Shown here: positions 712-25,779 of the stretch, piece by piece
Position numbering within the stretch: position 1 is the first letter of the stretch
Layout of the letters: the number at the start of each line of letters is the position of its first letter
Assembly (NCBI GenBank): GCA_977862235.1
Contig: OZ374558.1
Coordinates: 1,674,001-1,738,000, forward strand
Direction of reading: 5' to 3'
DNA length: 64,000 nucleotides
Source: Dudresnaya verticillata
Taxonomy: Eukaryota
Program-made: the position numbers and the translations under genes
The notes under the pieces: generated by a model
What the model was told of the DNA's origin: nothing
Database searches by the model: none
The model's input: only the letters and a program-made list of their open reading frames with translations

Positions 712-1386
712 TGTGATGAAGTGAGCCGTGGCGCGCATGCGGCACGCCGACGACGAGCCAACCGTAACGGGTGATGTGGCAATACGCCACGATGATGATC
801 TGGCAACGTGTAACCGTCTCGGATGTTGTGCGCATTGCTATAAGCTGGTACGCATTGCTGTACATCAGTGTAGCGCACCAACCGTAGCGGAGTATTTGTA
901 GTATTTATTCTTTATTTTTAGTGAGTATCTGTGCAGTTTGTAGAGTAGCGCGCCAGCCAATGAGAATGCTGCGCAAGTCCTTTTCGGAGATTGGGACCAG
1001 CAGGGCCGAATCCACCATGGGTCCAGACCACTAGGGTCTGGCCCGAAGGGACCGGACGGCTCGGTGCCACCCTGACTTGTATATCAGGGCGGCACCACAG
1101 CGGCTCCTAAGGTAAACGGGTAAGCAACCTTAGCCCAATCCTTTACGGTTTTCCCCGCGCCGAGCCCGTCGCGGTCTACCACCACCACCGTTACGGAGTC
1201 CGTCCCGGCACTTGTACCACCCCCTCGTCTGTTGATTCCCAATATCCGTCTCTGTTAGCCGCTCGCTGTTCTCCCGTTTCGGTGCGAACTTCTCTAACAC
1301 CCCGTGGAGGTAGTGTTGCTCTCGTCCGTTAAGGAAATTCAGGCCAGCTGTCCGTCTCGGAGTTCGTGGGTTTTCACGACACCACA
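712..1386 (+). repeat. E1 5' LTR (675 bp)
   Basis: TGTGATG...CACCACA; direct repeat of 11410-12029. Confidence 0.93.
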
Positions 1387-1391
1387 TCTTT

Positions 1392-1409
1392 TGGTCTCTG
1401 GACCTAGAA
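1392..1409 (+). promoter_or_regulatory. E1 primer-binding site (tRNA-Tyr-like)
   Basis: TGGTCTCTGGACCTAGAA just after the 5' LTR; 16/18 identical to the E2 PBS. Confidence 0.75.
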
Positions 1410-1534
1410 CACCGTCACGGTTGGAAGAAGCAGCCGTCGAAATCCGCTACGGTAGGAATTCGGCTGTACCGACAACCCGTTACGGAATATTGGATAGACA
1501 AGCAAGAACAACCGTTGTGTTCCGTTAAGGTATC

Positions 1535-4011
1535 ATGCAGAACGAAGAACACGCAGACCCTCCCGTTACGGAACCTAAAGCGGGTGACACTACCCCCGCT
1601 GCGCGCAGTCTGCGCAGTGAAGGAGGTGAAATCCGTTCCGGAGTGGAGAACCCAGAAGACACCTAAAGGGTGCTGCTGGTAAAGCTCCCCGTTCCCGTGT
1701 CGGATCAGACGCCTCGAAGAAGGCAGCTCCGCAACCCAAGCCGGAATCCCATCGGGTCCACTGGGTCCTGTCGGAGGTCCTTCCTAGAGTGTTAGAGCAT
1801 CTCCGATTGGAAGTACAACCTGGAATGTTAAAAGAGGTGGAGATATCCCTCTCGGAAACTGTTCCGTCGTTGGTTAATTCCTACCTTGTGCAGCACCTTC
1901 CTCGGATAGTGCAAGCTTTGATCCTACAGGAAAAGGTGGCCGCCGAGCTCGAGAGCCAGATTGCTCCCTGCATGGCAAGGCCTCCCGCTACGGAAGCTTT
2001 CACTGAGCAACCACCGTTACGGAATGAATTCCCGGTCGAGGGAAGAACGCAGCAGCCGCAACAACCCCCCTTTATGGGAGTGCAGCCGGGCACAGTACCC
2101 TCTGGGCCACTGCCACCGGCTCCCGTAACGGATTCTCAACATCAACACGCCCCTACGGGACCAACACACACTCAGCCACCGTTACAGTATTCTCCTGGAC
2201 ACGTAGATGTGCCTACGCCAGGGCGCTATCAGCAAGAGCGCTATACCGTTCCGGTTCGATCAGGTGGAGGCAGCGACCATCTCAGCGATGCGTCCAGCTC
2301 ACCCCATCCGAGTCGGAGGACCGGTCGAGGTCGGCATAAACGAGATGCCCGACACTCCCGCTCTGACCCTCCCCGTCGGTCGCACATGGGCGACCACACC
2401 CAGCGACGACGCCCCCAATCCTGTATGGAATCCAATGAGAGAAGCTCAGGGGATAGCCAACACCGCCGCAAGAGGAGAAACAGAAGATCACGGAAACGCG
2501 AAAAAAGGCATGACTCCTATTCCTCTACGGATTCAGACTCAGATAGTTCTTCCGTAACGGATAGAGAAAATAGGCACCGGGCCAGAAAACACGGTGCCAA
2601 ATCCGGAAAGGTGAAGGTAATCCGGCCGCTACATGGCAAGTTTGTCAAGGCGCTGGACTATCGCACCTACCGATTGGATAAGAGGAGCAAGACGTACGGC
2701 TCTAAGTTGTCACAGAACATGAGCCGTATATGGAAGAAACTCGACGTCCAGATGTCGTCCCATACATTCGATGGGACGGACCCTATTACCGTCTTGGTAT
2801 TTCTCGCTAAGTTACGTGGCGGTTGTAACATCAACGGCATCGCCGAAGGGGTTGCCGTCTGGTGCTTCCAGTTTTCCTTAAAGGCCAGGCCGAAGCCCTT
2901 CTACAGGCTAGGATTGCTGGAGGTACCATGGCGGTTGACGTAGAGCAGGCCGAGATGCTCCGCACATATTCCGATGTGGTGAACTTTTTGTTGAGAACCT
3001 ACGCTACGGATGAAGTGATTTCCGAATCCTATACGGATGTCAGCAACTTCAGGAAAACATCCGCCATGGCTGAAGAGCAGTTCTTGAACCAGCTCTGGGC
3101 CAAGGTTCTCCGTTGCGGTACAGTATTTTCCGATCGGGCATTGAAGTCACTGTTCGTTGAAGGGCTCCTACCGGGCACTCGTCAACAGATGAGAAATTAT
3201 TCAGCAACTCATTACCAGTTGGATTATCAGGCCATCACTCGCTATGCGACTGGCCTGGGTCAGTCCCATCGGGCAGCTCGACGCCAAACCGTTCCGTCTC
3301 ACGTCTTTGATGGGCGCACTAAAGCACGCCCGTCTAAGGTGTTATCGCTGGATTCCGTCTCGGATGTACACTATGATCCGCAAGCAGATCGTTCCGTTAC
3401 GGATGCTCAAGTCTTAGCTGTCGAGGGAGGCCACGGTGCCGCTACGGGAACGAGCACGGGGGTTACCTTTTCCATCCCGTACTCCTCTCCCCCGCAAAGC
3501 GTCCACCCTACTCCGCCGAGGATGCCACGCGCGCAATGGCCCCCCTATGGTGGATCTGGCTCGGCTCCTGGCCCCCAACAGCAGCCGAGTCACCGTTACG
3601 GAAATAATAACCACGATGGGCGAGGACAGCAGCAACCAGCACCTCCATTACGGGATGAGTCGGATCCTCGGGTCCGACGCCTTTACGGAAATGGTAACTG
3701 TCGCATCTGCCTTTCGCCAGAGCACGTTGTTTGGCCATGGATACATGACTCCGATCGGGTTAGGCTTATGGAAGAGCGAGAGAGCACAACTTCCAGAAGC
3801 ACTACCCTGTAGGCCGCAGGTTCGTAGTAAGCACCAGTTCGAATCCACAAGGGAATCGGGGCAAGCCGCATAAGCCCCCCCGCAACGGAATGCGCCGATA
3901 CTATCGGTGGAGGACCATGACGGAGGGGAACTCGCAGAATTGCGCGAGACCATCGAGGCGGATCCGACTGGTGCACCCTTGATTTCGGAAAACTCAAGGA
4001 GGGATGCGTAA
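1535..4011 (+). pseudogene. gag: E1 gag (frameshifted; ORF pieces 1789-2943 and 2862-3812)
   Basis: Homologous to E2 gag: YRTYRL, F(D/N)G(T/S)D..VL.FLA, V..LLRTYAT, RCG.V. Degenerate zinc knuckle CRICLSPEH. ATG at 1535 follows the PBS. Confidence 0.85.
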
Positions 4012-7000
4012 GGGCGCCGCCATCCCCGCCTCACAGCGTTCCACCTCTCGCAAGTGTGGACTCGCCCCGGGATCGGCGAGATACCGTTATGGAACTCCCA
4101 TTGGCTTATCAGACCAATGATCCTATCTGCTTTTTGCAACATCAAAATTATAAGATGCAAATTATCGTGGGACGGACAGATAGCGTGATGCTTCCTCTAA
4201 TCTCCGTCTTGGACTCTGGCGCTGGGCCCAATCTCATTAGTGCCAGGCGCCTTCCGCGCCAATGGCTCCCACTCATACGCCCAGCAACCAGCCCTACATT
4301 ACGGGATGCGTCAAATCGCGCTATACGCCCTCTTGGTCAGATCCAACTTTTCGTCCGTATCGGAGAGCTCCGTGCTCGCGTCCATTTTCTAGTGGTCGCG
4401 AACTTGGCGGCTCCCTGTATTTTGGGAACTACCTTCATCGACCGCTACGTGAAGGCAATCCTCCCTCAGTTACGGAAAGTTGTTTTTCATCATTACCCAC
4501 TGGTATCCCTTGTTGGTCAAGCCAAAATTCCGAAGACGGGTAACGCCGCAACTCTACAGCCCTCATCTTTATCCACCGCTACGGTTTCTCAGAAAATTCG
4601 TTTAGCAAGATCTACCCTTATTCCCCCTATGCCTCAAACCTCCGTAACGGTTAATACCCCACGGGTGGGTTATGCGTTCTAAAAAATCATCCTAAGCCGG
4701 CTTTTAAGCACCTTACGTTAATGGCTAAGGTATTATGGATGTTGTACCTAACAAACCGTTTCGGATCTGGGTCTCTAATTTTTCTAACAAGCCGGTACGG
4801 TTGCCCAAATATGCTGTCGTGGGCCTTGCTACTGCTGCCCCTTTCTGCTATTTTTACCGTTGACGGTATACCTCCATTTAAGGAGAGGGAGGAATTATTC
4901 AATCATTCAATTCTAACCTTACCTCCGAAAAGGCCAGCAGCATCTCCCCTCACGACAATGAAGTACGAAACCCGTAACGGAAACTACAAATACTACCGAC
5001 TGGAAGGATCAAGTCCAGATCGGTACAGAAGAAGCATCGCTCCGTAAACGGATTTTAACCCTACTCGAAGAATATAAGTCGATGTGGAGTGGCGATCTTG
5101 GCAACATTACAGCTGCCAAGCACCGCATCGAGTTAACTCCCGGAGCTAAGCCCGTATATCAAGCCCCATACCGTGCCGGACATAAGCAGTGAGATATCGA
5201 AAAGACAGAGATCGATCGCATGCCCGCTAAGGTAATTGAACCAGCCTCATCGGAGTAGACCAGCCCTGTGGTTTTCGTTCCAAAAAAGGACGGCACCATG
5301 CGGTTCTGTGTTGACTATAGAAGGGTCAATTCCGTAACGGTTAGGGACTCATATCCCTTGCCCAGGATGGATGAGTGCATAGATTCCCTTGGGGAAGCTA
5401 CTGTATTTACCACCCTGGATTTCAATAGCGGATATTGCCAAGTCGAGATTCCGGAAGAGGAAAGGGACAAAACTACCTTCACTAGCCATTTTGGCTTATA
5501 CCGTTTTCGGAGAATGCCATTCGGATTGAAAAATGCAGCGGCAACCTTCCAACGGGCAGTGGATATAATCCTTTCTACGGTTAAATGGCAATTTGCCCCC
5601 GTCTACCTAGACGATGTAATTGTCTACTCAAAAACCGTTACGGAACATTTCCACCACCTGAAGGAAGTCATTACGCTTTTACGATCCGCTGGGGTAACGT
5701 TGAAATTGTCAAAGTGTGACTTCTTCAACGCGTCTGTACAATACCTGGGGCATGTTATGAGTCCCGGAAAATTGGAAGTGGATAATAGGAATATCCAATC
5801 CGTTAAGGTCGCGAAGCCGCCGACTAACCAAACGGGATTGCGATCCTTCTTGGGAATGTGCAACGTGTATCATCGCTTTGTACCCAAATTCGCTCGGATT
5901 TCAGCACCGCTGAATAAGAATACCGGCAAGGGCTCACCATTTGAGTTTGGAATATTATCCGATACGGAATACGAAGCCTTCGAGGAACTGAAGAGACGCC
6001 TTATCTCTCCACCTATATTGGCTCTACCCCGCCACGGATATAAATATACGTTGGACACTGACGCATTTGACCATCAAGTCGGCTGTGTCCTTCTGCAGGA
6101 ACAACCGAATGGCGATCACCTCCCTATTGGATACTGGAGCCGAAGCCTGACCGATGCGGAGAAATTTTATACTACAACCGAAAAGGAATGCTTAGCCGTG
6201 GTCTAGAGTATGTTGACACTCCGACCCTACCTTTACGGTGACAAGTTTATTCTCCGAAGGATCACGATTCCCTGCGGTGGATCCTGAACCTCGCAGACTC
6301 ATCTTGCCGCCTAGCCAGGTGGAGGCTCCGCCTATCGGAATTTGAATTCGAGGTGCAATACCGTCCAGGAATTAAGCATCAACTCGCCGATGGGATGTCG
6401 CGACTCCGAACGGATGGCGGTGACAATAGACCTTTGGATGAAGAGATACCCCGCTTCGTCGCCGAAAATACCGTCGACGGATTATATTAGCATGGAGTTT
6501 ATTTAACCGATTGGGCTACATCACAAGAAACCGCTACGGAAAATAACGTAACATGCGCCGTGGCGCCCGCCAGTGGGAGTGCATCCGCCTCCCCTGACAA
6601 GCCCGACGTAATACCGTCACGGTTTACTGTAATCCAAGAATCCGACGTTAAGGATGAGACAATTACCAGGGAGGAGTTCCTTGAAGCGCAAGCCCGAGAC
6701 CCTTTCTGTCGTCTCAAAGCCGATACGGTAGGCTCACCTGGATCACAGTTTAGCTATGACCGTAACGGATTCTTGGTACGCAAGTCCCAATTGGATGGCG
6801 CTCTACAGAAGGTGGTGCCAAGCAAACTCCGTGGACGGGTATTGTATTTATCTCACTACACCCTGATGTCGGGTCACCCAGGCGGAATTAAGATGTATTA
6901 TACTCTCCGACAGGATTATTATTGGCCTCATATGGCCAAGGATGTATTTGAATCCGTTCGGACATGTCGCTCCTGCGTGAAGACGAAGGGAACCGCTTTC

Positions 7001-8325
7001 GGAATCAAAGGTTTATGAAACTTTTCCCCGCTAGTGGACCTTTGGAGTTTGTCGCTATCGACACTCTCGGGCCACTTCCGAAGACAAAACGGGGTTATGT
7101 CTACGTTCTGGTAATAACCGATCGGTTCTCTAAGCTGACGCGCTGTATTCCGTTACGGACAACAACAGCCGTTGTGGTGGCGAACGCCTTTCTGGACTTT
7201 TGGGTTTATGCGTATGGCGCACCCCAATTTGTCCTAACCGATAACGGACCGCAGTTTACTGCTACGTTCTTTGACTCGGTGTGTTCCTTACTCGGAGTCA
7301 GGCGCCTATTAACCGCTGCCTACCATCCGCTGACAAATGGGCAAGCTGAGCGATTTAATAAGACAATCGCCCAGTTTTTGCGCCATTACGTTGAGGATCA
7401 TCACTCCGGTTGGTATTTGTACCTGCAACCGTTGACGTATGCGTACAACATGCAGGTACACCGTATTACGGAAACAACGCCATTTGATTTGGTGCTGACA
7501 CGCCACCCATCGGACATGGTTGTACGAGGGGCTCCTGTCGAGCATCAAGAAACCGTTACGGAAGGGCGTATGATCCCAGTGTTACAGAAGCGGAGCACCA
7601 TGCGCCGTTTACGGTATGCGCTCCAGGCAGCGCGCATTAAGCAGACAGTAGCCCAGCAAAAATCCAAGGCACTGTTTGACCGTAAGGTGCGCTTTAGGCC
7701 CATAATCCGTAGCGGAGATCAAGTCTATGTCGACCGGCCGCCCCATAACTTGCGTCCTGCCGAACGCCGTGAGCGGGACCGATTGGAAGGTAAACCGGAT
7801 GATGTGGGTGAGGTGGCTCAGGAAATGAAGAAACTTCTTCCGCGAGCCACGGGGCCTTATGAAGTGGAATCCGCAACGGAACATGTGGTTACAATCCGCA
7901 AGGAAGGGGTATTGATCCCAGTAAGCATCGATCGCATCACGAAAGTTCTGATCGGAGTTGCGGTTCAGCCGGCGCCCTTAACAGTGCCGCCTGTCGCGCC
8001 ATCAACCGTTTACGGTGAAGTAATGCCACATCCAGAAGGTACGGCAGTAACGCCTACTCCGTCAACGGGCATTACACCCTCCGTAGCGGAACCCTTACAA
8101 GCCGATACGGAATATGTGATCGACAAGATTGTCGGTCACCGCGACGAACCTACCGGGATGACCTATAGAGTCCGCTGGTATGGTTACCCTCCGGATCAGG
8201 ACACTTTTGAGCCCGCGGAGGAGTTGCCGCAGAATTTCATCTACCGGTATTGCAAGCAAAAGAAAAAGACCTCCGGTAAGGGTAAGCCACGGCGACGTGC
8301 TAATCCAACACGTCACTCACCGTAA
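3987..8325 (+). pseudogene. pol: E1 pol: aspartic protease, RT, RNase H, integrase, chromodomain (several stops and frameshifts)
   Basis: Protease LDSGAGPNLI. RT RFCVDYR, MPFGLKNA, YLDD. RNase H TDA, EKECLAVV. Integrase H..GH..C..C, TDNGPQF, GQAERFN, GPY. Chromodomain YVIDKIVGHR...YRVRWYGY...TFEP (~8113-8260). Confidence 0.95.
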
Positions 8326-8425
8326 CGGACAGCTGGAGTGTTGGGGTGTGAGAACACACAATGTTTATCGCAAGCTAAGGTCGAGGCATAATGGAGACCG
8401 TTAAGGAGATCGTCGAACTGTAACT

Positions 8426-11271
8426 CTAAGAGTTACGGCGACGCCGCTTCGGAGCAGGGGCAACTATATCTTCCTCGTTGCTCCCCTGACCCGTTCGTAA
8501 GCCGGGTTCCCCACTGGGATCAGATTGGAATACGCGCTGCGTATTGTCTCCCAAGACGCGAATCGCATTATCCATGCGCCGACGCTGACGACGGACCACT
8601 GCGCGGAGATGAATCACCTTTTCCATCAGCCCCTCCGCTAAGGTTAGCGTTTCCTGAACGGATCATGGCAATGGGAAGCGCTGCGTACGGCAAATGCCCC
8701 GTAGCGCCTGTGACCCACTTTTGGTAGCGGCTAAATGAGCCGGAACCGTAACGGGGGGATCCTCATCTTCTTGAAACTCTACCTGCGGGGAGATCTACGG
8801 CTTATCCCTAACCCCGGCTTCGATTGAATGCTCCGTTGAGGAAACCACCAATACGGATGGTCCCGACTCGGGTGAAGGTACGTCCTTCCGCAGCGGTGGA
8901 TTCGTGTCCTTCTCTGTCGAGGCGATATATCTTTTCCGTAACGGTTCGGGACTTGACGCGGGGACCGAGGGCTTGTCACCAGTCGCCCCAACACTTGGGC
9001 GCTTTGCAGCCACTTCCGATACGGTGATCGGTGCCTCACTCACCGCTGGTGTGGGAGTGGGCGCCAACAGCGGAACACTTGGCGGGGGCGGTTCGGCGGC
9101 TGCAGGCATTTGCGTCGCAGGAGACAGTGCCGCCGGCACAGTATCCGGCGCTACTTCCGAAACGGTCTGCTCCTTTGAGGCCCCCTTCTCGGATGGTGCC
9201 GCAGGCTTGGGCACCGCCATAGTAGACGCAACCACGCCTATAGGCGTTGGGGCCTTATCCGATACGGGAGTAGTATTCTCACGATCTACATCGCGCGACG
9301 TGGGTGTAGCGACCACCGGAAGGATTGGAGCGGATTTCTTCTCGATACCCGCTGCCATTGATGCGACGGGCATGACCTCCTCCTGTTCTTCCAAGAAGGG
9401 GTCAGCTTCTTGCTGCCTCACCATAACGGAATCGCGCGGGTCGATTGTACGCGAACGCCCCGCTGCCTCCTGACAGCCCCCAATCTTCAGCCCCGTCCAA
9501 ACCATCACGGTACGCATCCCTTGGTGCTTGGTGAGGCGCATAGCCCCGATGGGCCTGCACCTCTAAGGCCAACCATTCCGGACGCGGATCTTCTCGATGA
9601 AGGAAATATGGCTCACCCACTCCGGGCCTAAGCGGGGGCACCGATAGGAAACGGTCCTCATCCCAACTATACCCCAAGAAGCCCGGAGTGCGTAGCCAAT
9701 CCTGCTCTCCGTGTACGGATAAAAGACGCTCAACCTGATGGAGAGGGTACGCCGACCCCGTCACCAAATCGGCTACGCCGACTTGGCGAATTAGGGCGAT
9801 CACCGTTACGGGAAGTTGAAAAATACGGCCACAGTATCCTCCGGGCAGGTCATCCTCATCCCGTGGGAAGCATCGCCAGTCGGCTAACTTGGTATTATAC
9901 CGTACTCCGTAATAGGCCACCTGGAGCCACGAGAAGAGCACCAGCATGGCCCATTCCGATCGGAAGATGCGCCACAGTACATCGAGCTGATCTTGATTCG
10001 GGGGGCGCTCTCCGTTCGGACGTTTGTGATTCCACTCCCGTTCGGTGAGTAGGTCCGCCGAAAAGTATGCCACGACGGAAGGCGTGGGGACAGACAACCA
10101 ACGGGTCACCTCATAACGATCCTACCATGACGGAGCTGTAAGGTACAATTCACGACGCACCAGATACGGAAGATGGAAGAACTCCTTAGTGTTTCAAGTA
10201 TGCAGGATTGGCGAGCCAACTTGCATTCCGTCACGGGAGCGAGTTCGCAAACGGTGTTCCGTCGCGGCATCGTCCTTCCACCCATCGGCATAGCGGAACC
10301 AATATACCGACTGGTCATAGGGGCGGTCAAAGCAAATGAATTGCACTCCGACCGGCGCACCCCGGAGACGGAAACCTTTGGCCAACAGGTGACTGACCTT
10401 TGCGGTATATCCTACCTCCCCATGGCAGCGATACCACAACAAATCCGAAACGGTAGAGGTCAGCGCTTGACAATAGCCATGCACCCATCGGCTTTGCCAT
10501 ACAAATTCTCTCCGATTCGGAACAACGCCAATGCGTTGATTCGCCTTAGGGCTGCGCCATGACGGCCTTGTACCTTCTTGCTTCCACGACGGTTGGATAC
10601 TTCTCGATGAAGTAGTCCACCGTCATCGGGGGCTTAATCTTCGCCCTCTCCGCATCGGTTCTAGCCGGGCGCCCCGCGCGATGATCAAAGTGGTGCCCCG
10701 GCCAATAACCACTCGGGGCAGGAACCTCTCCGTCACGGGTATGCACCACCGGCCACCAAGGCCCTGGTGCAGGTGGATTGATTTGCGGGGGCCCACGCAT
10801 CCGTCTCGGTGTACTTGATGAAGGATGTAGACTAGCCACCATCCTACGACTCGGCGTCGATACCGGTGTCGATGGTGCCCGTAACGGAATGACCGGTAGG
10901 TCTGCCAAGCTGAGCTCCTCGCCACCACGACGGAATGCATCATCACGGTCCTTGGTTGGCGCCTCTCCGTCACGGTGGGTCGCTGCACTCCCTGGTAGCG
11001 CGGTCCTTGTGGCTGCGCTCGCAGCAAACCGATTCGGATCATAGGCCGACCACCCTCGGCTCGCTGATGGAGCCGGCGAAGGTTCCGTCACGGCAACGCT
11101 CGTACGACCGCCCATTGCGGGTCGCGTCGCTGCCGCCGAGGAAGAAGCCGGCGCTTGAGTCGAAGCATCCGTAACGGTTAGCGCGCCCTGCGCCCTAGTC
11201 GTGGATGCCGCGCGGGAACGCCGTGTCGGTTGAAAGGGCGACGGTGAGCGCTTGGTTTTCTCCCCTGACAT
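8426..11271 (-). pseudogene. E1 antisense extra ORF (disrupted), unknown protein: low-complexity N-terminus, conserved globular core, Ala/Pro/Thr-rich tail, C-terminal basic NLS-like PAPKRRRR
   Basis: Collinear minus-strand ORF pieces 10546-11271 (ATG 11271), 10194-10484, 9402-10109 (same frame as 10194-10484, with two in-frame stops), 8795-9541 and 8426-8626. The core aligns by eye with the E2 antisense ORF. Confidence 0.75.
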
Positions 11272-11396
11272 GGTGGGAGAAGCGCGCAAGAAGAGGAAGG
11301 ACTGATGAGAACACTTCCGTATCGGTTGTGTGTGTTCGTGGGTGGGGAAGCGATAGCGATCCGCTACGGTGGGCGCCCGAGGACGTGGCGCCATTT

Positions 11397-11407
11397 AAGG
11401 AGGGGGG
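11397..11407 (+). promoter_or_regulatory. E1 polypurine tract
   Basis: AAGGAGGGGGG, 2 nt before the 3' LTR. Confidence 0.85.
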
Positions 11408-11409
11408 TC

Positions 11410-13421: not shown

Positions 13422-13424
13422 CGA

Positions 13425-13433
13425 CCCCCCTCC
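13425..13433 (-). promoter_or_regulatory. E2 polypurine tract
   Basis: Minus strand GGAGGGGGG, 3 nt before the 3' LTR. Confidence 0.8.
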
Positions 13434-13857: not shown

Positions 13858-16158
13858 ATGCCGATGTTCAATGGCATGCAGGTGGCGGCGCCCTCGGCTG
13901 CGCCGGTGTACGCTTCGCCGATCGACTTCGTCGGAAAGAATCCTCGCGATCACGCGCATTTCTTCGCGCGGGCCCCCTGGTTTGAGCAGGAGGCCCTGCG
14001 CGAGGAAGAATTGGTTGCCCATCACGCTACTAGCGGTTTCTTGCCGGGGGCCTGCCCCTCGGCGTCGTCTGGACGTTGGAATGGGAGTTACGCTGCGCCG
14101 TTCCTGCGGAATGGCTTTGGGTGCGAGCGGGACAGTCGCGTGCGGACGTCCACGCGCAGTTCGTCTCAGACGTGTATCGTCGCTTCACGCGGTATCCGGG
14201 GTCGACGTTAACGCCGCCCTTGTTCAATTATGATGCGGGACAGTATCGCACAGCCGGCGAAGCCGAATATGGTGCTCGTCTTGGGACGTTATCGCTCAAA
14301 CACGTTAGTGTGTCGATTGAGCCTCGCGTGTTGGGAGAGGCCTACCTGTTAGGCGTACGCTTGAAAGCGGATTTTCGTTACTTGCATCGTACGGGTACGT
14401 TCTTTTGGGAGCGTTGTATCCGGTGGGAGTGCGAGACGCGTCGCCGAAAGGGCGTATTCGTACCTTACCAGGACATGCAGGTCGATCGCATTGAGCGTAG
14501 TAAGTTACCGTTTTGTTTCGTGAAGGTACTGCCTGTATGGCGAGAGTTTGAGATATGCGAGGGTTTCTCCGTAGAGCTTCCTCCGTGTGTCACGTATCGA
14601 GCTGATGACCGACCCCTATTCAAGGTATTGGATCGTGTTTTACACGGAGTGGGTCGCCAATGTGGTGTATGCGTGGTTATGGGAGGTGTATGACACCTTC
14701 CGTATGTACCACTTGCCTCCGCGTGTGGTGGCTCAGCTTGGCAGCCTCGACTTGGTAGAAATATTTGGCGGGTCCCGGAACGCCGAGGAGTTCTGGAACC
14801 TGCGCGCTGTGGCGGATGAGATCGACTGGAACGACCCGGCAATGGTGCCGTATGCGAACAACCGCCGTAAGGCGAACCGTCCGCGCTTCGCGATGAGTCG
14901 GACTCACTCCGTCTGTGGCGATTGGGTCCATTATAACCCGTGGACTAAGCGTCGTACGACGAAGAACATTGCGGAGCGCCATCGCAAAACGGACCGCTTC
15001 ACCCCGGGTAATCACCCGCGTGGTTTGCGTAAGAGCTGCGACTTTGTCGGTGATTTTCCTCCGCATCTGAGCGCCTTAATGGCCGAGGAGGATGCGTTTA
15101 ACGCCGATGGCGGACCGGAGAACCCGTCTGGGACGGACATTGCTGCGCCTATGGCGGTTGAGTCGACTGCCGAGCCTGCGCCCGCGTCTTCGGCTTTGCC
15201 CGGAGGCGCTGTCGGTGGCGGTGGAGTGCCAGCTGGCCTGCCAGCTGTTGCTCCTCTGGACCTTGCGGCTCCCGTCGCTGACGATGATGGTGATGCCGTT
15301 ATGGCGACGCCAATATTGGAGTCGGCTCCGCCGACCGTGACGCCTCAAGGCAAAGCATCAAACATCGCAGACGGTTCTGGGGGTCCAGCTTCGGTGCCGG
15401 TTCGGACCGAAGAACAGCGCCGCACCGTGCTTGCGTTATTGCAAGCGGCAGGCGTCGCTACTAGCGGTCTGAGCGGCTCACCCACTGAGTGGATGAGCCA
15501 ATCTTTGTCGGCTGGGGTCCCACCTCAGGGTGGGCCCACGCCGAAGTCGACTAGTGTCATAGGTTCTGCGTCGAAGGACGGTGTGGCAGAGAAGCCTTCG
15601 TCGCCTAAGGCGAATGGTCCGGCGTCTAAAGACGTGAGTATGACTGTACCGCCTGTAGCGAGCGAAGCGAATGCCGATATAGCGTCGTTGACGGTTCCAA
15701 AGGGGCCAGGGGCTCCTGCGTCATTGACTGGTGTTGGTTGGTTGGTTAACAGCGCCGAAGGCGAGTGAAGAAGCGACGCCAATCAAGGCGGTTTCTGAAC
15801 TGACGCCAAAGGCGGTCGACGAGTCGTTGATTACGCTTAAAGCGGATGGGGCTATGCCCGCGCCTAAGGCGAACGATGGCTTGAGCTCTGCACCCGTGGC
15901 GGTTGTTATTGCTTCATCGCCTTTGGCGGATATTGTCGCGACGACGTCGAAGGCGATTGATGAGTCGCCCATCTCGCCTGCGGCGCCTGTTATAGTCACT
16001 CCGGCGGTTGCGGTGGCAAGGCCTTTGCGGTCCGCCCGGCTCCTGCCGTGAGTGTACCGTCGAGGACGGAGGACGACCTCTATGAAGAGGCGTTGCGTGA
16101 GTCCGCCGAAGGCGCCGTGGCTGTACCACCCGATTCGTCTGCGACGAAAGAGTCTTGA
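13858..16158 (+). pseudogene. E2 antisense extra ORF (frameshifted), homologous to the E1 antisense ORF
   Basis: Collinear ORF pieces 13858-14211, 14076-14693, 14587-15768 and 15731-16051. A globular Trp/Tyr-rich core is followed by an Ala/Pro/Ser-rich tail. Confidence 0.78.
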
Positions 16159-17462
16159 TGTCGTTTGAGCAAAGGATAGCGGACGCGAGGTGCGTATTGT
16201 GTTGCCCTTCGGCTCCCTTGCGGGACCGATGAGCGGGGTATTCCCCTTCGTCTTTGACGATTAATGTAGCTGTAGTGGTCGATTGCTAGGGCGTGGGGTT
16301 GTCCCCATTTGTTTTTAGCCCAGTAAACTTCGGCCATTGTCAGCGTCTTTGTGTGTCACGTTTCGCGTTGGCCCTTAGGGTGTGACTTGTGATCCACTTT
16401 CGACTTTGCGTCGTGTTCTTGGTTGCCCACTACAGTAACGTTGGCGTTTGGTGCCATTGGCCTTAGCCGTGCGTTGGCACTTGGCTCTGTTTGCCCAGTA
16501 GGGTCCGCTGTAGTAGCGTTGTTCTTTGTGTTTCACGCGCGGCGTTGGCGTATTTCCGCTTACTTAGCGTTTTGTTTTTGTAGTTCATGTGTCGCACTGC
16601 GACTTGGGCGTGGTTTGTTGGGTCACTGCACCTTGGGCGTGGTTTTTCGGCGTCCTCGACGACGGTCGCGAAGGCGGTGAGGTAGGTTTGGCGCCTCGGC
16701 GTTGCCGCCCCTTTCGTCTTCGACGTTTCTCGTTGTGGGTAGGGTAGAGTTGTCGGTCGCGCTCGCGCAACTGCGCGGCGGCCGCAGGCAGCGGCGGAGT
16801 CGTTGGCGATTTGTTGGCGCGTCGTGCACGGAACCCGCAGCACCTGCGTCTTCGACCACCTTCCCCCCCCTTCGGGGGTGGGTTTGTCGGTGCGCCCCTT
16901 CTCGGAGAGTTACGTCGGAGACGTTCGATGGGTCTGGCGCGCGAGACCGTGGGCGGCAGGGTGGCGGTCCCAGGTACTTGGCCGTAGGACGAGGCACGTC
17001 TCGACGTCGGAGACGGTTGTTGTGCGCTGCCACTTTGCGCCTGTCGTCGCTGGTGCTCGTAGCACCTGCTCAGCCACTTGGCATAATTGCGTTCGTCGTG
17101 CGTTGACGGCGGGGTGGTGCGCGCTGCCGTGTTTGGAAATTAAAATTGGACCCATGTCTGCCTCCTATTACCCGAGGGGCGCCGGTGGCGGATCTTGATT
17201 TGCAATCTGGATCACTGTCAACAGCGCACCCATCCAGAGGTTCCGTATGGGGGCTGCTGCGAGGTGGCGTGCGCGAGGCTGTCTATGACGCAACGACTTG
17301 CGTCCGCGTTCGTCCATGGCGTGCACACGTGGTTGGCGCTGTCGCTCTGGCGACCGCGTCCACAGGCTATGGGTTGAGCTTCCGCGCCTTTGGTGATCGT
17401 AGGTCGAGCACGCGGTCTCGATCGTCCGTCCATTCGCTTCCAGCGGTATTTCCGGATTAGGG

Positions 17463-20400
17463 TTAGCCGCGCTGCGCGTCGTCGACGTTTGGCGGCAGCT
17501 GCGTACGTTTTCGACGGTGGTATCGTGTGACGTGGGAGCGCGGCAAACTGGAGACTGGCTCCCAGGTGTTCGCTGAAGCGGGGTATCCAAACCACTTGAC
17601 GCGGTAGAGGATCTCATCACCATCCGCCTATGCGTGCGACTCTATGCGTTCAATCACGTATTATTTTCCGCTCACAGCGTTCGGCTTGGACATGGGCCTG
17701 TCCAGCGCCTTTGGCGGTTTGTCTCGTTGCGTGATGGGCGTCTGTTCCAGCTCGGCGAAGCGTACTCGACGAGTTGATCGCCGGAGGCGTTGGCCCTGGG
17801 CCTGGGACGCTCGATCAGCGGTCAGTGGATTGTTGCGTCTTGAGACGAGTTCATCGCTTGCAGCGCCTTGCTTCGTGCTTGCACGGTTAACGTCTTCGAT
17901 ATCGGATGCGCTTTCAGCGGAGTCATTGTTCTCATTCGGCGGTGCCGTAGCGACGTGTTCCAAACTGGTGCGAACCCCTGGGGTACTGTCGTCGTTGGAG
18001 ACGGATTGTGAAGCGCGGTCGTTGGGATCGGCGGCGAAGGGCGAAAGCTCTGCCAACCCACGGCTGCGTGACGCGGTGATCGTACGCTCTTGCGGATCTG
18101 CCGCAGTATGCGAAGTGTCTGCGTCCTCTTCCGGGTCCGCTGGTGGCGTGCTTGGGGTAGTCGTCCCTTCGTCGTGTGACGTGGGGGCGACTGCTCCCTG
18201 CTCCTCAGGCGGGCCTGGTGGTACGACGATTGGAGGGGCCGCCTGACCGGTGGGGTCGGCGCCCAGACCACGCGGTCTCGGGACAAACGTTCCCGCTCAT
18301 CACATCCCTTGTCGACGGTTACTGTTTCGTTATCAACGTGAGTTACCCGGTATGGTCCGTCCGCCACTGGCGCCAGCTTATACTTACGCTCTGCGCGATC
18401 CGTGCTCCCGCCTCGGGCGAAGTATTCCTTACGTACGAATACGAAGTCGCCTACGGCGATTGTTTCCTTCGATTTCCTTAAGCGGGTATCGAAGTTTCGT
18501 TTGTAACGTGCTTGAGTTTTCTCTAACGACGCTTTAGCGGTTCCCATCAGTGCGGCCAGCCAGGTTCGCCACTTGGTGTAGTATTGCCCCGCGGTGGGTA
18601 CGCTTTCGAGCGACGGTTCCGCTTCGAGCGACAATGGTCGTGGTGGCTTCGACAGCACCAATTCAAACGGAGCGAGATGCGTGGACGAATGCAACTTTGT
18701 GTTGTATGCGAACGTCAAGGCATCCGTGAACAGGTCCCAGTCTCTCGGATGATCCGCAACGTAGTGACGCCGCGAGGCCAGGATAGTTCGATTGAATCGT
18801 TCTACCTGGCCATTGTATTGCGGATGGTACGTCGTGGTGAAGAGATTCTCCACTCTCAAAAGACGGCAGATATCCTGAAACAGCTTAGCCACGAACTGTG
18901 GTCCGTTATCGGACAACAGTTTCTTGGGGGGGCCGTACAAGAAGACCCAATGTCGTACAAATGCCTTAGCGATTTCCAATGCCGTAATACTACGCAGTAG
19001 GACCGTCCGGACCAGCTTCGAGAAGCGGTCCACAATGACGAGTAGGAACTTGTTTCCTCGCTTCGTGCGTATGAGTTCGCCCAGGATGTCGATCGATACG
19101 AACTCGAGAGGCTCGGTTGCCGGGAACAACTTCAATTGCTTGGTGTTCTTTCGCAGCAATACGCGATTCTTAGCGCAAGTTACGCAGTTGCGGACGGTTG
19201 CATAGCAGTCCACTGGCATCGATGGCCAATAGTATTCGCGTCGAAGCGTATGATACAACTTACGCCCCTGGGTGCCCTGCCAACTTGGCGTGGTGCCGGA
19301 GGTGGAGTAAGCGAGCGCGTAACGCGTAGGGTACGACCACTTGCGGACGGACTTCCACTGTTCGGACCAACAGGCCCTGTTCATCCGTTGCGAACGGTAA
19401 TATGATTCCGTCATCCAGACGTTTCTTGATATCGTTACAGTACTTGTCATCGCCTTGGGCGTGTACCAACTCCTCATGCGTCACTTGACGAAGGAATACC
19501 TCATCCGCCGGTGGCGTGTTGTTGATCAACACTTGGTCGAACTCTTCGAACTCTCGTTCGGCGAAGTCGACCTCGCCTTCGGCGTCTGAAAGATCGTCCT
19601 GTGACGTTTGATGGCCGTCTTCGACGTAGCTTCCGTGATAGCACGGTATATCATCGTCAATGGGCTCGACGGTTTCTCCCTTCGTCTGTAGACGCGAAAG
19701 GGCATCTGCCTGGGTATTCAGGTACCCCTTTTTGTACTTCACGACAAAGTCGAACTCGAGAAGGCGAAGGCGCCACCGCATTAACCGTCCAGAGGGGTCG
19801 CTGATTTCCATCAGCCACCTCAACCACGAATGGTCCGTATGGACTGTGAACGACTCCATCTGGAGGTAAGGTCGCAGCGTCATGACGGACCATACTACTG
19901 CGAGGCACTCCTTTTCGGAGACCGAGTAGTTACGCTCTGGAGCGGTGATCGAGCGGGACCAGAAGCCGAGGGGCTTACGTTCCCCGTCGGGCTGCGTCTG
20001 AAAGAGAGCGCAGCCGACCTGATACTCGCTTGCGTCACAATCGACAGAATAGGGGAGACCCTGCTGTGGTAGCGCCAGTATAGGCGGATGAGTCACGGCC
20101 TCGACGAGCGTGCTGAACGCTTTGGCTTGTGTCTCATCAAACGGTTGTAACCGGAAGTCCTGTTCCTTCCTCAGCAACTTGTTGAGGGGGGCAGCGACAT
20201 GCGCGTATCGCGAGACGAACCGTCTGTAGACGTTACAAAGACCGAGGAAACTCCGTAGCTCCTTCTGATCCCGTGGATGCTTGGCTTCGCGTAGCGCGGC
20301 AGTGACAGTTCGGTCAACTTCTAACCGTCCTGGACGTATGACGTGTCCTACGCAGTTGACGGTCGGGGTGAAGAAATCACACTTGGTCAACTTCGGAGTC

Positions 20401-22187
20401 ACCCCGGCGCGGTGCAATGTCGAAAGGATCTCTTCAACATGACGGAAGTGACTGTCGATGTCGCTGGAGAAGATTATTACGTCATCGAGGTAGACGAGGC
20501 ACGAACGCCACTTGTAACCAGCGAGCAGTATGTCCAACGTTCGTTGAAACGTAGCGGGTGCGTTCGTGAGACCGAATGGCATACGCTTATAGCGGAACAG
20601 TCCGGCGTGGCACGTGAACGCAGTCTTATCGCGGTCTCGCGGATTGATCGGCACTTGCCAGTACCCACTGTTACAGTCTAGGGTGGTGAAAACGTTTGCT
20701 TCCCCTAGACTGTCGATGCATTCGTCGATACGCGGCAGCGGGTACGTGTCCCGTATGGTTACTGCGTTTAAACGACGGTAGTCCACGCAAAAGCGGAGGG
20801 TCCCGTCCTTCTTGGGGGCGAAGACCACTGGTGACGCCCACGGCGATTGTGCGGATTGGATAACCCCTTGACGCAGCATGCGTTCCACTTCCGCTTGAGC
20901 GAGTTGTCTTTGCTTCGGCCCCGCTCGGTAGGGCGGGGACGATATTGGTCTAGAGCCGGGAAGCAAGTCGATGTAGTGCTCCGTGGTTGAGATTTCTCCC
21001 AACGAACCGTCCCACATAGACGAATACTTGCGCAACATCTCCTCAAGCCGGCCTTGATGCTCGGCGGGGAGATGTCCCAGGTCCAAATCGTCTACTGACG
21101 GAGGTTTGGCAGTGGTTGCCTCGATAGACTTCGTGAAAGTATCCGGCTGTGCCGCAGTGTTATCATTCGTTTGAAAACGGAAATCTTGGTTTGTCTTCTC
21201 TTCCTCGGCTTGTTCCTCGGTGAGGCCCAAAACATCGGCTAGACTTACGTGACTGGGGAACACTGCTGTCGGATGTGGTAACGCCGTCGCGACGACTTGG
21301 GCCTTGGCCAGCGCCTGCGGGCGGGGAGAGAAGTTGGCAACCAGAATGCGAAACGCTTTTAGCGGCTCCACTTGAGCAATACCGTTCGTAACGGCCAGAA
21401 CTTGTTTGTCGTACAGCTTTCCGAACGGTTGAATCGTGATGATGCCGGCGCGCTCGGTGGTCACCGATACCCATTGCTGCGCCTTAGGCGGGATGATCGC
21501 GCGCTCGGCGACTCGGATCTTGGGTAACGTCCTCCCTTCGGCCTTGCCGTATTCCTGTTCCGTTGGTAACGGAGGGTACGACGGGGGTCGGCGCAGCGGG
21601 CGGCGCGTTATAGGGACGCGAGTCCCGTCATCCAATTCAACCTCGCGACTTCGCGGATATATTGCTTCGACGAAGCGGTCGCAAAAGTCGCAGCCGAGTA
21701 TAACCGGCGCAGCGAGTCGTTCGCAAACGATCAGTTCCAACTTGACGACTCTCCGTCCTAGACGAACGACCAGGTCGATGGTGCCTCTTGTCTGGATCGC
21801 CTTATTGTTTGCGTCGGCTATGACGGGGAGGCTCTTTGCCACGATGCGCGATTGCGCTTCTAGCGGAATGTCGTCAATGCGAATGAATTTCGGACCAGCC
21901 CCCGTGTCGAGAACAGTGAGTTTACGTGCCAAGGTACTAACGGTTGCGCCCAAATCGGCGTACACCTTATAGTTCCTCTTGGCCATTACGAACAACTGCC
22001 CCCGCGTTTGGGGGGGCTGGTACCTTCGCCATGGGTGTTTTAATGACGTCTGCGACGACTCTATCCGCCCGTTGGCGTCTTTGGTAACTAACTTCGGGCC
22101 CTCCTTCCGTGTCAGCACCTGAGGCCTAGGCCTCTCGTCGTGGTGCGACACCCCAGTGTCAGGAGTTGGTGCCCGAGTTAGTTTTTC
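17463..22187 (-). pseudogene. pol: E2 pol: protease, RT, RNase H (open 19260-22151), integrase (frameshift ~19260), chromodomain (17463-17660, with stops)
   Basis: LDTGAGP; RFCVDYRRLN, MPFGLTNAP, YLDD; DCDAS, EKECLAVV; SDNGPQF, GQVERFN, GPY. Chromodomain YVIERIESHA*ADGDEILYRVKWFGYPASANTWEP translated by hand. Confidence 0.95.
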
Positions 22188-24742
22188 GCCTGCGGCGGTG
22201 GTTGTGGCGCTTCATAGCGATTGATCATCGTCGGATGACGTTCTGCAGCGTGCGGCATGGGTCCGCCTCGTGGCGATTGTGGTCGTGCAGCACGGCGAGC
22301 AGCGTCGCGGGTCGCGCGTTCCTTGCAACGTACATACGCATCAGCGCGGACACCAGCCTTCTCGGCTTCGGTTAGTCCTTCATAGTTGGTAATAACCTTT
22401 ATGAAGTCGCTCATGCAGAGGAAGCAGTCCGGCGCGATGTGTCCGCGGGCGTAGCATTGGTGGCATACCAGCTGCCGACGCGAGTCTTGACGGGGCGGGC
22501 CTCTGTCCTGACATCCGGGCCTTTCTCGGTGGACGTGAGGAGCATACTCGGAATAGGGGACGCGTGGCGCTGGTACGACCGAGCGCCCAAAGGCGAGAGC
22601 AGGGTCTATATCCCTTTCGTCTTCTTCATCGACGCAACTGTCCGTCGGTAGAGCCGAGGTTGGCACCGACGCTTGCTCGTCTGCCAAGTACAGATCGCCT
22701 TCGGCGTGTGTTTCCATGTCATCGACAGGGCGACTAACGTCTCGAAACTCGACGGAGGACTCCGCTATCATAGCGCGCACTCCAGGCTTGGTGCCTCTAG
22801 TCTGTGGACGCAGTACCCCTCGGGCATCGCCGATGGCGGATCGCGGTGTGCGTACGGCTTGAGCCGGTGTCAATAGGTCACGTCGGGCTGACGCGGAACC
22901 GGCCCTGCCGTGTCGTGCGCGGTTGGCATCCCCTTCGTCTTGTGCGAAATAGACCAGCCGCTCAAATGACAACTCCGCCCTTGGCGTTTCTTCTCGGAAG
23001 CGAGCGACCAGGGACCTGATCGACGGGCCTAACCCGTCGATGTACAGCGTCATCTTTTCCCAATCGGGATATACGTTACCGCAACGAATACACGCACCGG
23101 CTAGCCGCATCCCATAGGTCGTCTCGTCCTCGCCTTGCTTTTGGGCAGTCGACCGTAGGGCGAGGACAGCGTCCCTGATCGCTGCTGGCGTAGCATACGT
23201 ACGGAGGAGGTACTGTACCGCCTCCGGATACGAAAACACCCCGTCGCGATGGCGAGAAGACGTCGACTTGACGGAGCGGAATTGCGTGGCTGCCGTACCT
23301 CGCAACAAGTACGGCAGCGCGACGAACGCTTGGGCTTCGCTCATCTCCAGCGTATCGGCTTCATCTGCGTAACGCGCCAGAAACTCGAGGACCATGACGT
23401 GGTCGCTGCCGTTGAAGGCGGCGTCCTTCATGGTCAGCTCCAAACGCTTGATATGGTCCTTGACCTTACCCGTATCGCGCCCTGAGCGTTTTTGCCCTAC
23501 GTCTTTGAGACGGTACGTCCTGTACGATGATAACTGATCGAAAAGGGGGTTGGAGGGGCTTAGCTCCTTCAACCCCTTGAACCGCTTTCCGCGAGGTCTT
23601 GCGCCACTGCCGAGAGTTGGAAAGTCGTCGTCTTCAGACGAAGAGTCTGATGACTCTCCGTCACTTGACGAGTCCGAAGAGGACGAGGATGAGTCCCCTC
23701 GTCGATGACGATTCTTCTTCCGTCTCTGACGCAGCTTGCGTTGGCGTTTCTTCCGATCCTTACGTCTGTGACGATCTTCGCATAAGCTCTCGTCACCCGA
23801 CGGTGGACCATTGCGCCACTTGGCGGTTTCGAGACGCTCTAAGCGAGTCATAAGTCGCTGAAAGCGTTCGCGTGAGCTAAGCTCGGAATGCGAATGAACC
23901 GTTACTGCCGACGGTGGTTGTGTACCCTCGCCTTGGGCGTTTTGGTTCGTCAATAGACGGTCGAGGTCGGATCGAAGTCCTTGTAGGGCGCCGTTTCGAT
24001 CCTCTTCCAACGTCTGTAGACGACTTGCGATTCCTCCGACACTGTCGTCCAGCAACCCGGCGAATCGAGCGAGCATCGCATCGTCCTCTAAGACGCACAC
24101 CTCTCGGATCCGTTCGTGTGGTATCGTTACGTTACTCGCGCGGACGGCCGAGGGTGACGCCGTTGGCGGTTGGCTTTCGCGGTTTGACCGGTCGGGCGTC
24201 CCTTGCGCCCTTTGACTTGGCGACTTCGGCTTAGCCGGCGAACACCCGGCACTGCCGTGGGGAGTGGGGCAACATGCCCCTTGTGTCAATGGTTCGTCAG
24301 CGACGTTGCGCTCCGCGGAGCGCCCTTGATCGTCGTTGACGTGGTTGGTTGGTTGATCCGGAAGTTCCGGTTGTCCCTTGACGATGTCGGCTTGTGTTCC
24401 GTCTACGACGTCCTGTTGCTCGGCTTGTACTGTATCAGCCGAGTCAACATAGGAGCGGTAGGTGCGGAGGGCCGATCCCTCGGGGACTGAGGTGCGGACG
24501 ACGACGGGGTTGTGGCGCGTCGGCGGGGGAGGTAACTCTCCTCCGTTGAGCGACGCGTGGGAGCCTGCGTGGCCGTGGCCCGGGGGTAGCGTTGGGAACG
24601 CCGACGCGATCTCGGGGCTCACGAGGCGCCCAGACCTCGTTGTCATCCGCTGTAGCGACCGTTCTGACGCGGGTACACTCCCAGGCGTCGAAGACGGTCT
24701 TCTTGAACTTGGGCCTCGCGACGGCGGCGGTCGTGAGGCCAT
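22178..24742 (-). CDS. gag: E2 Gag polyprotein (854 aa)
   Basis: Uninterrupted ORF after the PBS, with CCHC zinc knuckle CHQCYARGHIAPDC. Homologous to E1 gag. Confidence 0.9.
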   Translation of the reverse strand: MASRPPPSRGPSSRRPSSTPGSVPASERSLQRMTTRSGRLVSPEIASAFPTLPPGHGHAGSHASLNGGELPPPPTRHNPVVVRTSVPEGSALRTYRSYVDSADTVQAEQQDVVDGTQADIVKGQPELPDQPTNHVNDDQGRSAERNVADEPLTQGACCPTPHGSAGCSPAKPKSPSQRAQGTPDRSNRESQPPTASPSAVRASNVTIPHERIREVCVLEDDAMLARFAGLLDDSVGGIASRLQTLEEDRNGALQGLRSDLDRLLTNQNAQGEGTQPPSAVTVHSHSELSSRERFQRLMTRLERLETAKWRNGPPSGDESLCEDRHRRKDRKKRQRKLRQRRKKNRHRRGDSSSSSSDSSSDGESSDSSSEDDDFPTLGSGARPRGKRFKGLKELSPSNPLFDQLSSYRTYRLKDVGQKRSGRDTGKVKDHIKRLELTMKDAAFNGSDHVMVLEFLARYADEADTLEMSEAQAFVALPYLLRGTAATQFRSVKSTSSRHRDGVFSYPEAVQYLLRTYATPAAIRDAVLALRSTAQKQGEDETTYGMRLAGACIRCGNVYPDWEKMTLYIDGLGPSIRSLVARFREETPRAELSFERLVYFAQDEGDANRARHGRAGSASARRDLLTPAQAVRTPRSAIGDARGVLRPQTRGTKPGVRAMIAESSVEFRDVSRPVDDMETHAEGDLYLADEQASVPTSALPTDSCVDEEDERDIDPALAFGRSVVPAPRVPYSEYAPHVHRERPGCQDRGPPRQDSRRQLVCHQCYARGHIAPDCFLCMSDFIKVITNYEGLTEAEKAGVRADAYVRCKERATRDAARRAARPQSPRGGPMPHAAERHPTMINRYEAPQPPPQAKN

Positions 24743-24849
24743 GATACAATCGTAGAGTTGCTTGAACGTCGTGGACGATTAGCGACAAACGTCTGAAGAC
24801 GGAGGGTCGGACGTCGCACGACGGAGTAACTCGTTGAAACGTAGCACAA

Positions 24850-24867
24850 TTCTAGGTCGGGAGACCA
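24850..24867 (-). promoter_or_regulatory. E2 primer-binding site (tRNA-Tyr-like)
   Basis: Minus strand TGGTCTCCCGACCTAGAA, 2 nt from the 5' LTR. The complement reads TT-CTAGG-TCGGGAG-A-CCA, the shape of a tRNA 3' end. Confidence 0.82.
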
Positions 24868-24869
24868 GA

Positions 24870-25779
24870 TGTGGTGCAAAACGTCTGAGACGATAGACCG
24901 CCGAGCAGTTCGGGGCTCGGTGGGTAGCTGCGCCCTTGGCGAGAGGTGGTCCCGCCGTGGGCGACTTGGTGGTAGAGCAAAGGAACACGCCTTGGGCGGA
25001 CTGTAGACGCCCGAGGCGGAAGGTGTGAAGGAAGGGAAAAGGAAACAGAAAGGGAACACGTCAAGGACGATGGTAGACGTGGAAGCACGGGAGGTAGACG
25101 CTTTGCCGTAGGCAGCGGTAGGATACGCGCGTGCGGAACGGGGAGGTCTGGACCAAGGCCGGCTTGCCCGGGCGTTTACTGTTACGTCTGGGACGGCTTA
25201 CCTAAGTATAGTACGGCGGTGCGGCGGCGGCGGTGCGTGTGCGTAGTGCGGGAACTCGGGACACGTGTCGTCCCGAGGCGCGTCTGACAGATCACCGGTT
25301 GCATGCAGCCGCGCGCCTGACAGGTTGCCGTGCAACCCCCTGTATAGGTGCTTACACACACACGTGGACGCGTGGGCCTTTCAGCCGTGCGTGCGCGCGC
25401 ACTGTAGAGCGTGCGCCTTGGATCTAATCCGATACTTGTCTGATCCCGATCCCATCCGGATCGGGCCAGCAATGCGAATACCCGCAGCCTTACAGGCGCG
25501 TATCTTACAGCTTAGGCGATCCGGATAACCAATCTGGATACCGGATCCGGATCCCATCTGGATCCGTATTACAGTGCCCCGGGGCGCCACGTCGGGCTAT
25601 CACCGTACATTGCCCGTGTGGCGCGCGGCGCGCAATGTGCGCGCGCGCCCCAGTGAGCCGTCGATGACGTGTTCGCGCGCCAACGGCGGTGGTGAGCGCC
25701 GGTGGCGGGTTCTCCGTCGGTCGACGTATTTGGTCGACCCGCTTTCAGCGAAAAAGGGCTCGCCTCCCCTTGCACCACA
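24870..25779 (-). repeat. E2 5' LTR (910 bp)
   Basis: Direct repeat of 12512-13421 with TG...CA termini. Confidence 0.95.

Follow-up and report, generated by a model that had tools for sequence, protein, structure and literature searches.

The window analysed here, a stretch of 64,000 nucleotides from Dudresnaya verticillata (GenBank assembly GCA_977862235.1, contig OZ374558.1, positions 1,674,001 to 1,738,000 of the forward strand), contains two Ty3/Gypsy retrotransposons, E1 and E2, which are paved with short inverted repeats of a type specific to each element. Both also carry an open reading frame (ORF) that lies in antisense between pol and the 3' long terminal repeat (LTR). In the favoured reading, which is given a probability of about 0.4, the paved repeats are selected self-tags that would fold on either strand, and the short ones are putatively bound by the antisense protein of their own family.

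In E1, an unbiased dyad scan found CCG-N3-CGG 80 times against 7.7 expected, and CCGT-N-ACGG is present 30 times against 1.1. In E2, the same scan returned CGCC-N3-GGCG 40 times (1.5 expected) and CGTC-N3-GACG 32 times (1.7 expected), and the strongest 3-mer dyad in the other 23 kb of window DNA has a z of only 3.8. The sites are spread over gag, pol, the antisense ORF, and the LTRs, and each motif is at background level in the other element. In the gag, pol, and antisense ORF of its own element, each motif exceeds all 500 synonymous-codon shuffles, and codon or amino-acid bias is rejected as a source because the sites survive these shuffles. The counts bear out a preliminary description of the window, which had proposed one dispersed palindrome per family, rare in the other element and in the rest of the window, and a codon-preserving shuffle as its check. 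A tandem-repeat origin was also rejected, as none of the seven TRF rows explains the sites. Helical phasing of the sites at 10.5 bp was looked for and not found, and Rfam gave no match in the window or in six further loci.

The E1 site and the E2 site are two different kinds of thing, and each holds two CpGs. The half-sites of E1 are independent (33 paired of 73, 33.6 expected), as expected of a dimer reading duplex sequence. What recurs in E2 is the shape of a hairpin, constant in size and capped by CG, and not one sequence motif. Its inner pairs are CC/GG (36), TC/GA (30), CT/AG (14), GC/GC (10), and others. Matched halves of the first two classes (36 + 30 = 66) stand against five mixed ones (CC/GA or TC/GG, 4 + 1; Fisher p 1e-14), so that the formula CGYC-NNN-GRCG of the preliminary description misdescribes the site. 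Its proposal of two symmetric half-sites read by a dimer fits E1 but cannot produce the co-variation in E2. Among the 256 occurrences of CG-N7-CG in E2, 123 are perfect inverted repeats where 11-16 are expected, whereas the single-mismatch classes are near background; sites with a four-base loop are often perfect too (52 of 165). The bases that flank the stem pair less often than expected (24 of 175 vs 45), and neighbouring sites are often separated by 18-24 nt (23% of the gaps, compared with 8%). Repeats of 11-12 nt with a C cap make up 18% of the length of E2, and its main stem classes have energies of about -2 to -4 kcal/mol with DNA parameters.

Relatives of these elements were found by an integrase search, as host contigs in bacterial bins. 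Most of the close ones are contamination in a bin labelled Algimonas, a genus presumably linked to red algae, and the hosts of the lineage are likely red seaweeds. An rRNA search of the bin does not discriminate, since all 14 prokaryote controls gave matches too. Eukaryotic retrotransposon contigs contaminate several bacterial bins, namely G001, G002, and Sedimenticola bins (L006-L030). The relatives L007-L010 are paved like E2, with C-capped stems of 4-5 bp, and the style of the site follows kinship: L009/L010 have 12-nt sites with the loop T-K-M-A, L007/L008 have sites of 12-14 nt with the loop D-G-C-H, and E2 has 11-nt sites with CG ends. When these five families (E2 and L007-L010) are pooled, C-capped perfect repeats exceed expectation in gag-pol (447 vs 76), in the antisense ORF (126 vs 22), and outside the genes (147 vs 30), and single G.T variants in gag-pol number 124 vs 94 on the sense strand and 157 vs 128 on the antisense strand. 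The paving in the relatives survives synonymous shuffles. It is missing in the other Gypsy and Copia elements of the same bin, in the DIRS-like element of the window, and in host genes.

Loop preferences are strand-symmetric in four of the five families, namely L007-L010 (chi-square p 0.25-1.0). The stems end at the C, as the flanks pair less than chance in all five families (p 6e-10 to 0.04). When sister families are compared, four-fold degenerate sites agree in 85 of 152 cases within stems and in 439 of 1219 elsewhere (p 3e-6), while those in loops are no more conserved (30 of 87). Spacing is more even than chance in L007, L008, L010, and E1. This silent-site conservation supports purifying selection on the sites. 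A few probable animal Gypsies have a mild general excess of stems. Separately, L024, a distant Gypsy in a 12.2-kb locus that is probably animal host DNA in a bacterial bin, has 22 dispersed GTT-N-AAC sites (19 GTTCAAC, 2 GTTGAAC, and 1 GTTAAAC). Their flanks often pair, and they form a strand-biased, RNA-like dispersed hairpin; the relatives L013, L015, and L019 have GTTC-N5-GAAC.

The antisense ORFs of E1 and E2 show a weak likeness when compared directly (p ~0.0005-0.001 vs shuffles), but both match a profile of the intact relatives (hhalign E 1.6e-5 for E1 and 4.6e-6 for E2), which upholds their earlier description as homologous. Intact antisense ORFs are present in L007 (837 aa), L009 (994 aa), and L122 (at least 815 aa). 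That of L010 is partial and open to the contig end, and only a tail, which by eye resembles that of L007, is present in L008. A profile search gave 332 protein clusters at E<=0.001 and 86 at 1e-10, and 150 of the 332 are listed. The family profile, rebuilt from the listed hits that pass a profile of non-window rows, finds four pieces in the window, in order. Among ten clusters looked up, the sole named one is from Gracilariopsis chorda and belongs to the closest matches of E1; this species carries PXF39757.1, an intact natural homolog. Single-sequence searches with the broken ORF pieces of the window found nothing, an alignment word search gave four close matches only, no metagenome loci were found for the ORF, an Atlas search returned no usable match, and sequence searches of the PDB with the protein gave nothing significant. 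Pfam has no family for 59 of 60 homologs scanned; the one exception, P0069, was rejected as a false positive with unrelated domains.

A model of one homolog, 37-42% identical to the E2 pieces, is mainly helical and confident (predicted local distance difference test, pLDDT, 91.9; predicted template modelling score, pTM, 0.90) and rests on a 131-row alignment; an earlier model from nine rows was discarded (pLDDT 40). Its best structural alignment has a Z of 2.5 and a root-mean-square deviation of 5.4 over 113 aligned residues. The antisense protein family is conserved, and its fold, as modelled, may have no known match. The family core contains 11% Arg and 13% aromatic residues. In the intact G001 proteins, a coiled-coil-like segment and then a basic low-complexity tail come after the core, which suggests a nuclear nucleic-acid binder. 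A homodimer prediction, run without an alignment, scored 0.00 and speaks neither for nor against a dimer.

The strict Watson-Crick arms and mostly symmetric loops point to sites that must work on both strands, and such sites would act in duplex DNA, or equally in RNA and its complementary DNA (cDNA). In DNA, an integrated or freshly synthesised copy may bear the tags as small hairpins or mini-cruciforms. Stems of 4-5 bp would be marginal alone and would need a protein clamp, whereas the stems of 8-15 bp found in a sister clade would need none. E1 would then stand at the end of the series, its site being recognised simply as duplex sequence. By coating its own copies, a family could protect or activate itself and not its competitors, as VANC does for Arabidopsis VANDAL transposons. 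A bolder form of this proposal is doubtful: it sees a self-recognition code in DNA symmetry, where a putative new-fold protein would clamp hairpins or mini-cruciforms by their family-specific size, cap, and loop, with almost any arm sequence. Such a tag could be written hundreds of times into protein-coding DNA, and the code would range from long stems that fold by themselves, through short ones held by protein, to the plain sequence site of E1.

Several observations weigh against the self-tag reading. The sister clade formed by L139, L011, L111, L140, and L141 (support 95/97) is also paved, and its perfect stems, which lie in intact coding frames, are longer: over 27 kb, those of 8 pairs amount to 108 where 4.0 are expected, compared with 2 vs 2.5 in controls, and the pol of L111 has 32 stems of at least 8 bp, up to 15 bp, vs 0.6 expected. 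In the family L153+L006, a polypurine run directly follows pol and leaves no apparent room for the ORF, and a weaker spaced palindrome, CCC-N5-GGG, is present 20 times vs 4.7; in this family, neither the short-stem nor the long-stem class is strong. In the integrase tree, E2 takes another position, next to L110/L111 and not firmly supported, and the reverse transcriptase (RT) tree does not resolve E1 and E2. E1 has the antisense ORF yet no excess of C-capped hairpins (1.07-fold). The E2 loops are strand-asymmetric, with an excess of A on the sense strand (p<0.001). G.T variants occur at roughly twice the expected number in L009/L010, and in non-coding DNA they rise to 62 vs 36 on the sense strand. 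Foldseek found no match to the model of the antisense protein among solved or viral structures at E<=0.001, although a single-domain match could escape in a model of 411 residues. No known nucleic-acid-binding fold appeared among the structural comparisons of the model, and the net charge of the core is modest (median +3). Finally, cruciforms with 4-bp arms would be expected to be unstable when the duplex is relaxed.

Since the sister clade is paved without a seen ORF, paving is a property of the lineage and would not depend on the antisense protein, unless the ORF was missed, and the association of short sites with the ORF and of long stems with its absence is a single phylogenetic contrast. 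The family profile finds no antisense ORF in the sister-clade contigs, where the 3' DNA spans only 0.6-1.2 kb in three and is nil in L139 and L140. The gap from pol to the end of the ORF is about 0.5-1.9 kb in the ORF-bearing families, and the absence of the ORF stays unproven because the 3' DNA is short relative to this gap. The preliminary description had asked whether families lacking the ORF are equally enriched. The sister clade where it was not seen is paved, and with longer stems, which speaks against a simple pairing of motif and protein; its sites are of a different class, and the lack of the ORF is not established.

Among the rival explanations, signals of the particle stage survive best, though they too are unlikely. 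Here Gag, RT, or integrase would use the hairpins for packaging, pausing, or chaperoning in genomic RNA and minus-strand cDNA, and the antisense protein would have another or a helper role. Phage MS2 reportedly has dispersed stem-loop packaging signals of this sort. The lineage-wide paving, including the clade without a seen ORF, and the A-rich E2 loops on the sense strand agree with this explanation, and a need to fold on both strands would alone exclude G.U pairs and symmetrise the loops. The MS2-type stem-loops are many short hairpins in coding sequence that are read by an element-encoded protein, and they are strand-specific and tolerate G.U. In contrast, the arms here are strictly Watson-Crick, with G.U mildly raised in some short-site sets, and the loops are strand-symmetric in four of five families. 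Moreover, action in RNA alone is disfavoured by the stems with one imperfect pair in the sister clade, where sense-strand G.U pairs (38 vs 15.5 expected) are no more enriched than other-strand G.U pairs (48 vs 18.2) or other mismatches (122 vs 62.2), against the 108 vs 4.0 of perfect stems. E1 also keeps gag-pol, but a sequence site replaces the hairpins.

It is rather improbable that the repeats are scars of template switching, in which the RT of this lineage would snap back on the nascent strand and perfect near-palindromes with family biases in loop and length, with no function. Such scars would account for the strict Watson-Crick arms, the strand symmetry, and the confinement to one RT lineage, and repeated repair could lower silent-site divergence in stems too. 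Quasi-palindrome template switching is documented for cellular polymerases (PMC3820800) and also gives perfect inverted repeats on either strand, but it is rare and site-specific and lacks a fixed length, cap, or family style. Its one-arm signature was not found here: 82 hairpins absent from the sister family show no one-arm rewriting (p 0.51; 5' vs 3' p 0.30), in pairs that are partly reciprocal and limited in power. The amino acids encoded by the arms show the same degree of conservation as the others (669 of 1018 compared with 4198 of 6212; p 0.25, with limited power). Random termination would not yield flanks that avoid pairing, and the independent half-sites of E1 and the even spacing are left unexplained. 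Selection is favoured over template switching because one-arm rewriting and extra amino-acid change were not seen, the flanks are anti-paired, and the spacing is non-random.

Passive defence is less probable still. Self-pairing of both strands would limit sense-antisense duplexes or small-RNA access, or would decoy a host nuclease or deaminase, with no reader encoded by the element. Folding on both strands and the even spread of the sites are in line with it, and the elements do encode antisense transcription units. However, stems this short could not withstand a long complementary strand, and a specific reader is implied by the fixed outer C, the exact lengths, the anti-paired flanks, and the family-specific loops. 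Equally improbable is a bias of host methylation or repair, reportedly proposed for cyanobacterial HIP1 and the alternative named in the preliminary description, or a host DNA-binding factor. These could suit the two CpGs of the E1 and E2 sites and the resemblance of the E1 site to a transcription-factor site, but methylation bias is unlikely because the LTR copies show no CpG excess or sign of CpG decay (rate ratios 0.2-1.3, from small counts) and most families' sites need no CpG, and, beyond this, the sites are missing in neighbouring host DNA and the DIRS-like element, adjacent families differ, and changes between LTR copies are, by eye, single and uncompensated.

The literature search, in which subscription journals were thinly covered and mostly titles and abstracts were seen, found no account of hairpin-paved Gypsy elements or of the antisense protein. 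Like VANDAL transposons with their VANC proteins, whose binding to the motif of their own family is shown in Arabidopsis (PMC5735166), E1 and E2 combine an accessory ORF with a short family-specific motif dense in their own sequence, and in VANDAL/VANC the motif and the protein also diverge between families. The preliminary description had drawn this parallel, which extends to these features but not to the transposon class or to the placing of the motifs. VANDALs are Mutator-type DNA transposons, and their motifs (YAGTATTAY, AGTTGTCC/AGTTGTAC) are non-palindromic, in the same orientation, mainly non-coding, and grown by tandem repeats (PMC5735166). The sites of these LTR retrotransposons are palindromic or co-varying, coding, and dispersed rather than tandem, and their binding is putative.

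Retand/Tat elements of plants also belong to Gypsy, and an antisense accessory ORF likewise separates their pol from the 3' LTR; its product is predicted to bind DNA and has a function given as unknown (PMC11963269). They are angiosperm non-chromoviruses whose ORF contains TRP28, whereas the elements here have a chromodomain and Pfam scans of the window and the homologs gave no match to PF04195 (TRP28). The Retand repeats are tandem arrays in the region between pol and the LTR, unlike the dispersed sites here, and the main text of that paper does not use the word 'hairpin'. The nearest idea in red algae is Plavaka PAG3, an accessory protein of a red-algal transposon proposed to bind the inverted repeats of its own element (10.1101/2025.02.11.637652). 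It differs in belonging to a DNA transposon, in its ParB-like and 2-oxoglutarate (2OG)-oxygenase domains, for which no Pfam match was found among the 60 homologs here, and in its tandem arrays beside the gene, of which there are none here. According to the same source, no transposon except VANDAL is known to bind its own sequence and modify it. A preprint on DAM-LTR elements (10.64898/2026.05.21.726589) describes a different accessory domain.

E1 and E2 lie back to back in the window, with one solo LTR of E2 and two related LTR relics (Table 1). In both elements, gag and a pol in the order protease, RT, RNase H, and integrase lie between the LTRs, which is the Ty3/Gypsy layout, and Pfam recognises RT, RNase H, and integrase in each; the two different Gypsy families of the preliminary description thus stand. 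The chromodomains it had assigned to both are recognised by Pfam at the C-terminus of the E1 integrase (PF00385, E 1.2e-9) and in E2 only through a tblastx match to that of E1 (44%). PF00385 is also present at E<1e-3 in the pol proteins of all five relatives scanned. In neither element of the window is the pol gene or the antisense ORF intact. No target-site duplication was seen around E1 or E2 (700-720, 12020-12040, 12500-12520, and 25770-25790), and therefore both may be recombinant or trimmed copies. A primer-binding site, TGGTCTC..GACCTAGAA, is common to E1 (1386-1415), E2 (24835-24869), L007, and L008.

Table 1. Features of the window and their inverted-repeat sites
Feature	Position	Strand	Remarks
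E1 LTR element	712..12028	+	LTR pair 88% alike
E1 dispersed sequence palindrome W-CCG-T-W-A-CGG-W	712..12028	.	80 cores, halves independent
E1 5' LTR	712..1385	+	8 CCG-N3-CGG sites
E1 gag, two frames	1630..3812	+	homologous to E2 gag and G001 gag genes
E1 pol (protease, RT, RNase H, integrase, chromodomain)	3921..8325	+	stops and frameshifts; 23 sites in 3813-8325
E1 antisense ORF, broken	8795..11394	-	conserved core ~9549-10547, two in-frame stops; 22 sites
E1 3' LTR	11410..12028	+	7 sites
E2 LTR element	12512..25779	-	LTR pair 97% alike
E2 dispersed co-varying mini inverted repeats CG-XY-N3(4)-Y'X'-CG	12512..25779	.	175, one LTR left out
E2 3' LTR	12512..13421	-	11 CG hairpins
E2 antisense ORF, frameshifted	13837..16051	+	conserved core ~14034-15100; 33 CG hairpins
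E2 pol, frameshifted	17400..22211	-	68 CG hairpins
E2 gag, open, 866 aa	22178..24778	-	39 CG hairpins
E2 5' LTR	24870..25779	-	15 CG hairpins
LTR ~72% alike to E1 LTR	1..545	+	CC-N5-GG variants 12 vs 4.5 expected (small sample)
LTR-like relic, ~71% alike to E2 LTR	26300..27100	-	7 CG hairpins
Solo LTR of E2 family	51327..52236	+	13 CG hairpins; inside DIRS-like element without such hairpins

The rest of the window contains a DIRS-like element (48016-54200) with an RT fragment and an RNase H-like frame, which is split by the solo E2 LTR and is enriched in AC-N-GT (43 vs 20) and AGCT-N8-AGCT (6 vs 0.1). A unit of 8.1 kb is present three times at 97-99% identity (32168-47736 and 57410-64000) and carries a 447-aa frame that ends in C2H2-like motifs, recognised by eye and without a Pfam hit. 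In this unit, CpG transitions are 2.1-2.8 times those at other C/G sites, unlike in the LTR pairs, from small counts. In L110, positions 1-1200 after pol hold repeated structured units with three copies of the GGCAGACCGATCTGCC palindrome and repeated CTGATGGCGC blocks, and gave no Rfam hit.

Whole ORFs paved with perfect family-specific inverted repeats, with arms of up to 15 bp in an intact pol, are strange under any mechanism. Should the RT make the repeats, reverse transcriptases would have a way of mutating that has not been described. Should the antisense protein read the sites, retrotransposons would have their counterpart of VANC, in the form of a DNA binder that recognises symmetry and not sequence through a fold without a solved match. 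The long-open role of Gypsy antisense ORFs could then be tested directly, since both candidate sites and intact natural proteins are available.

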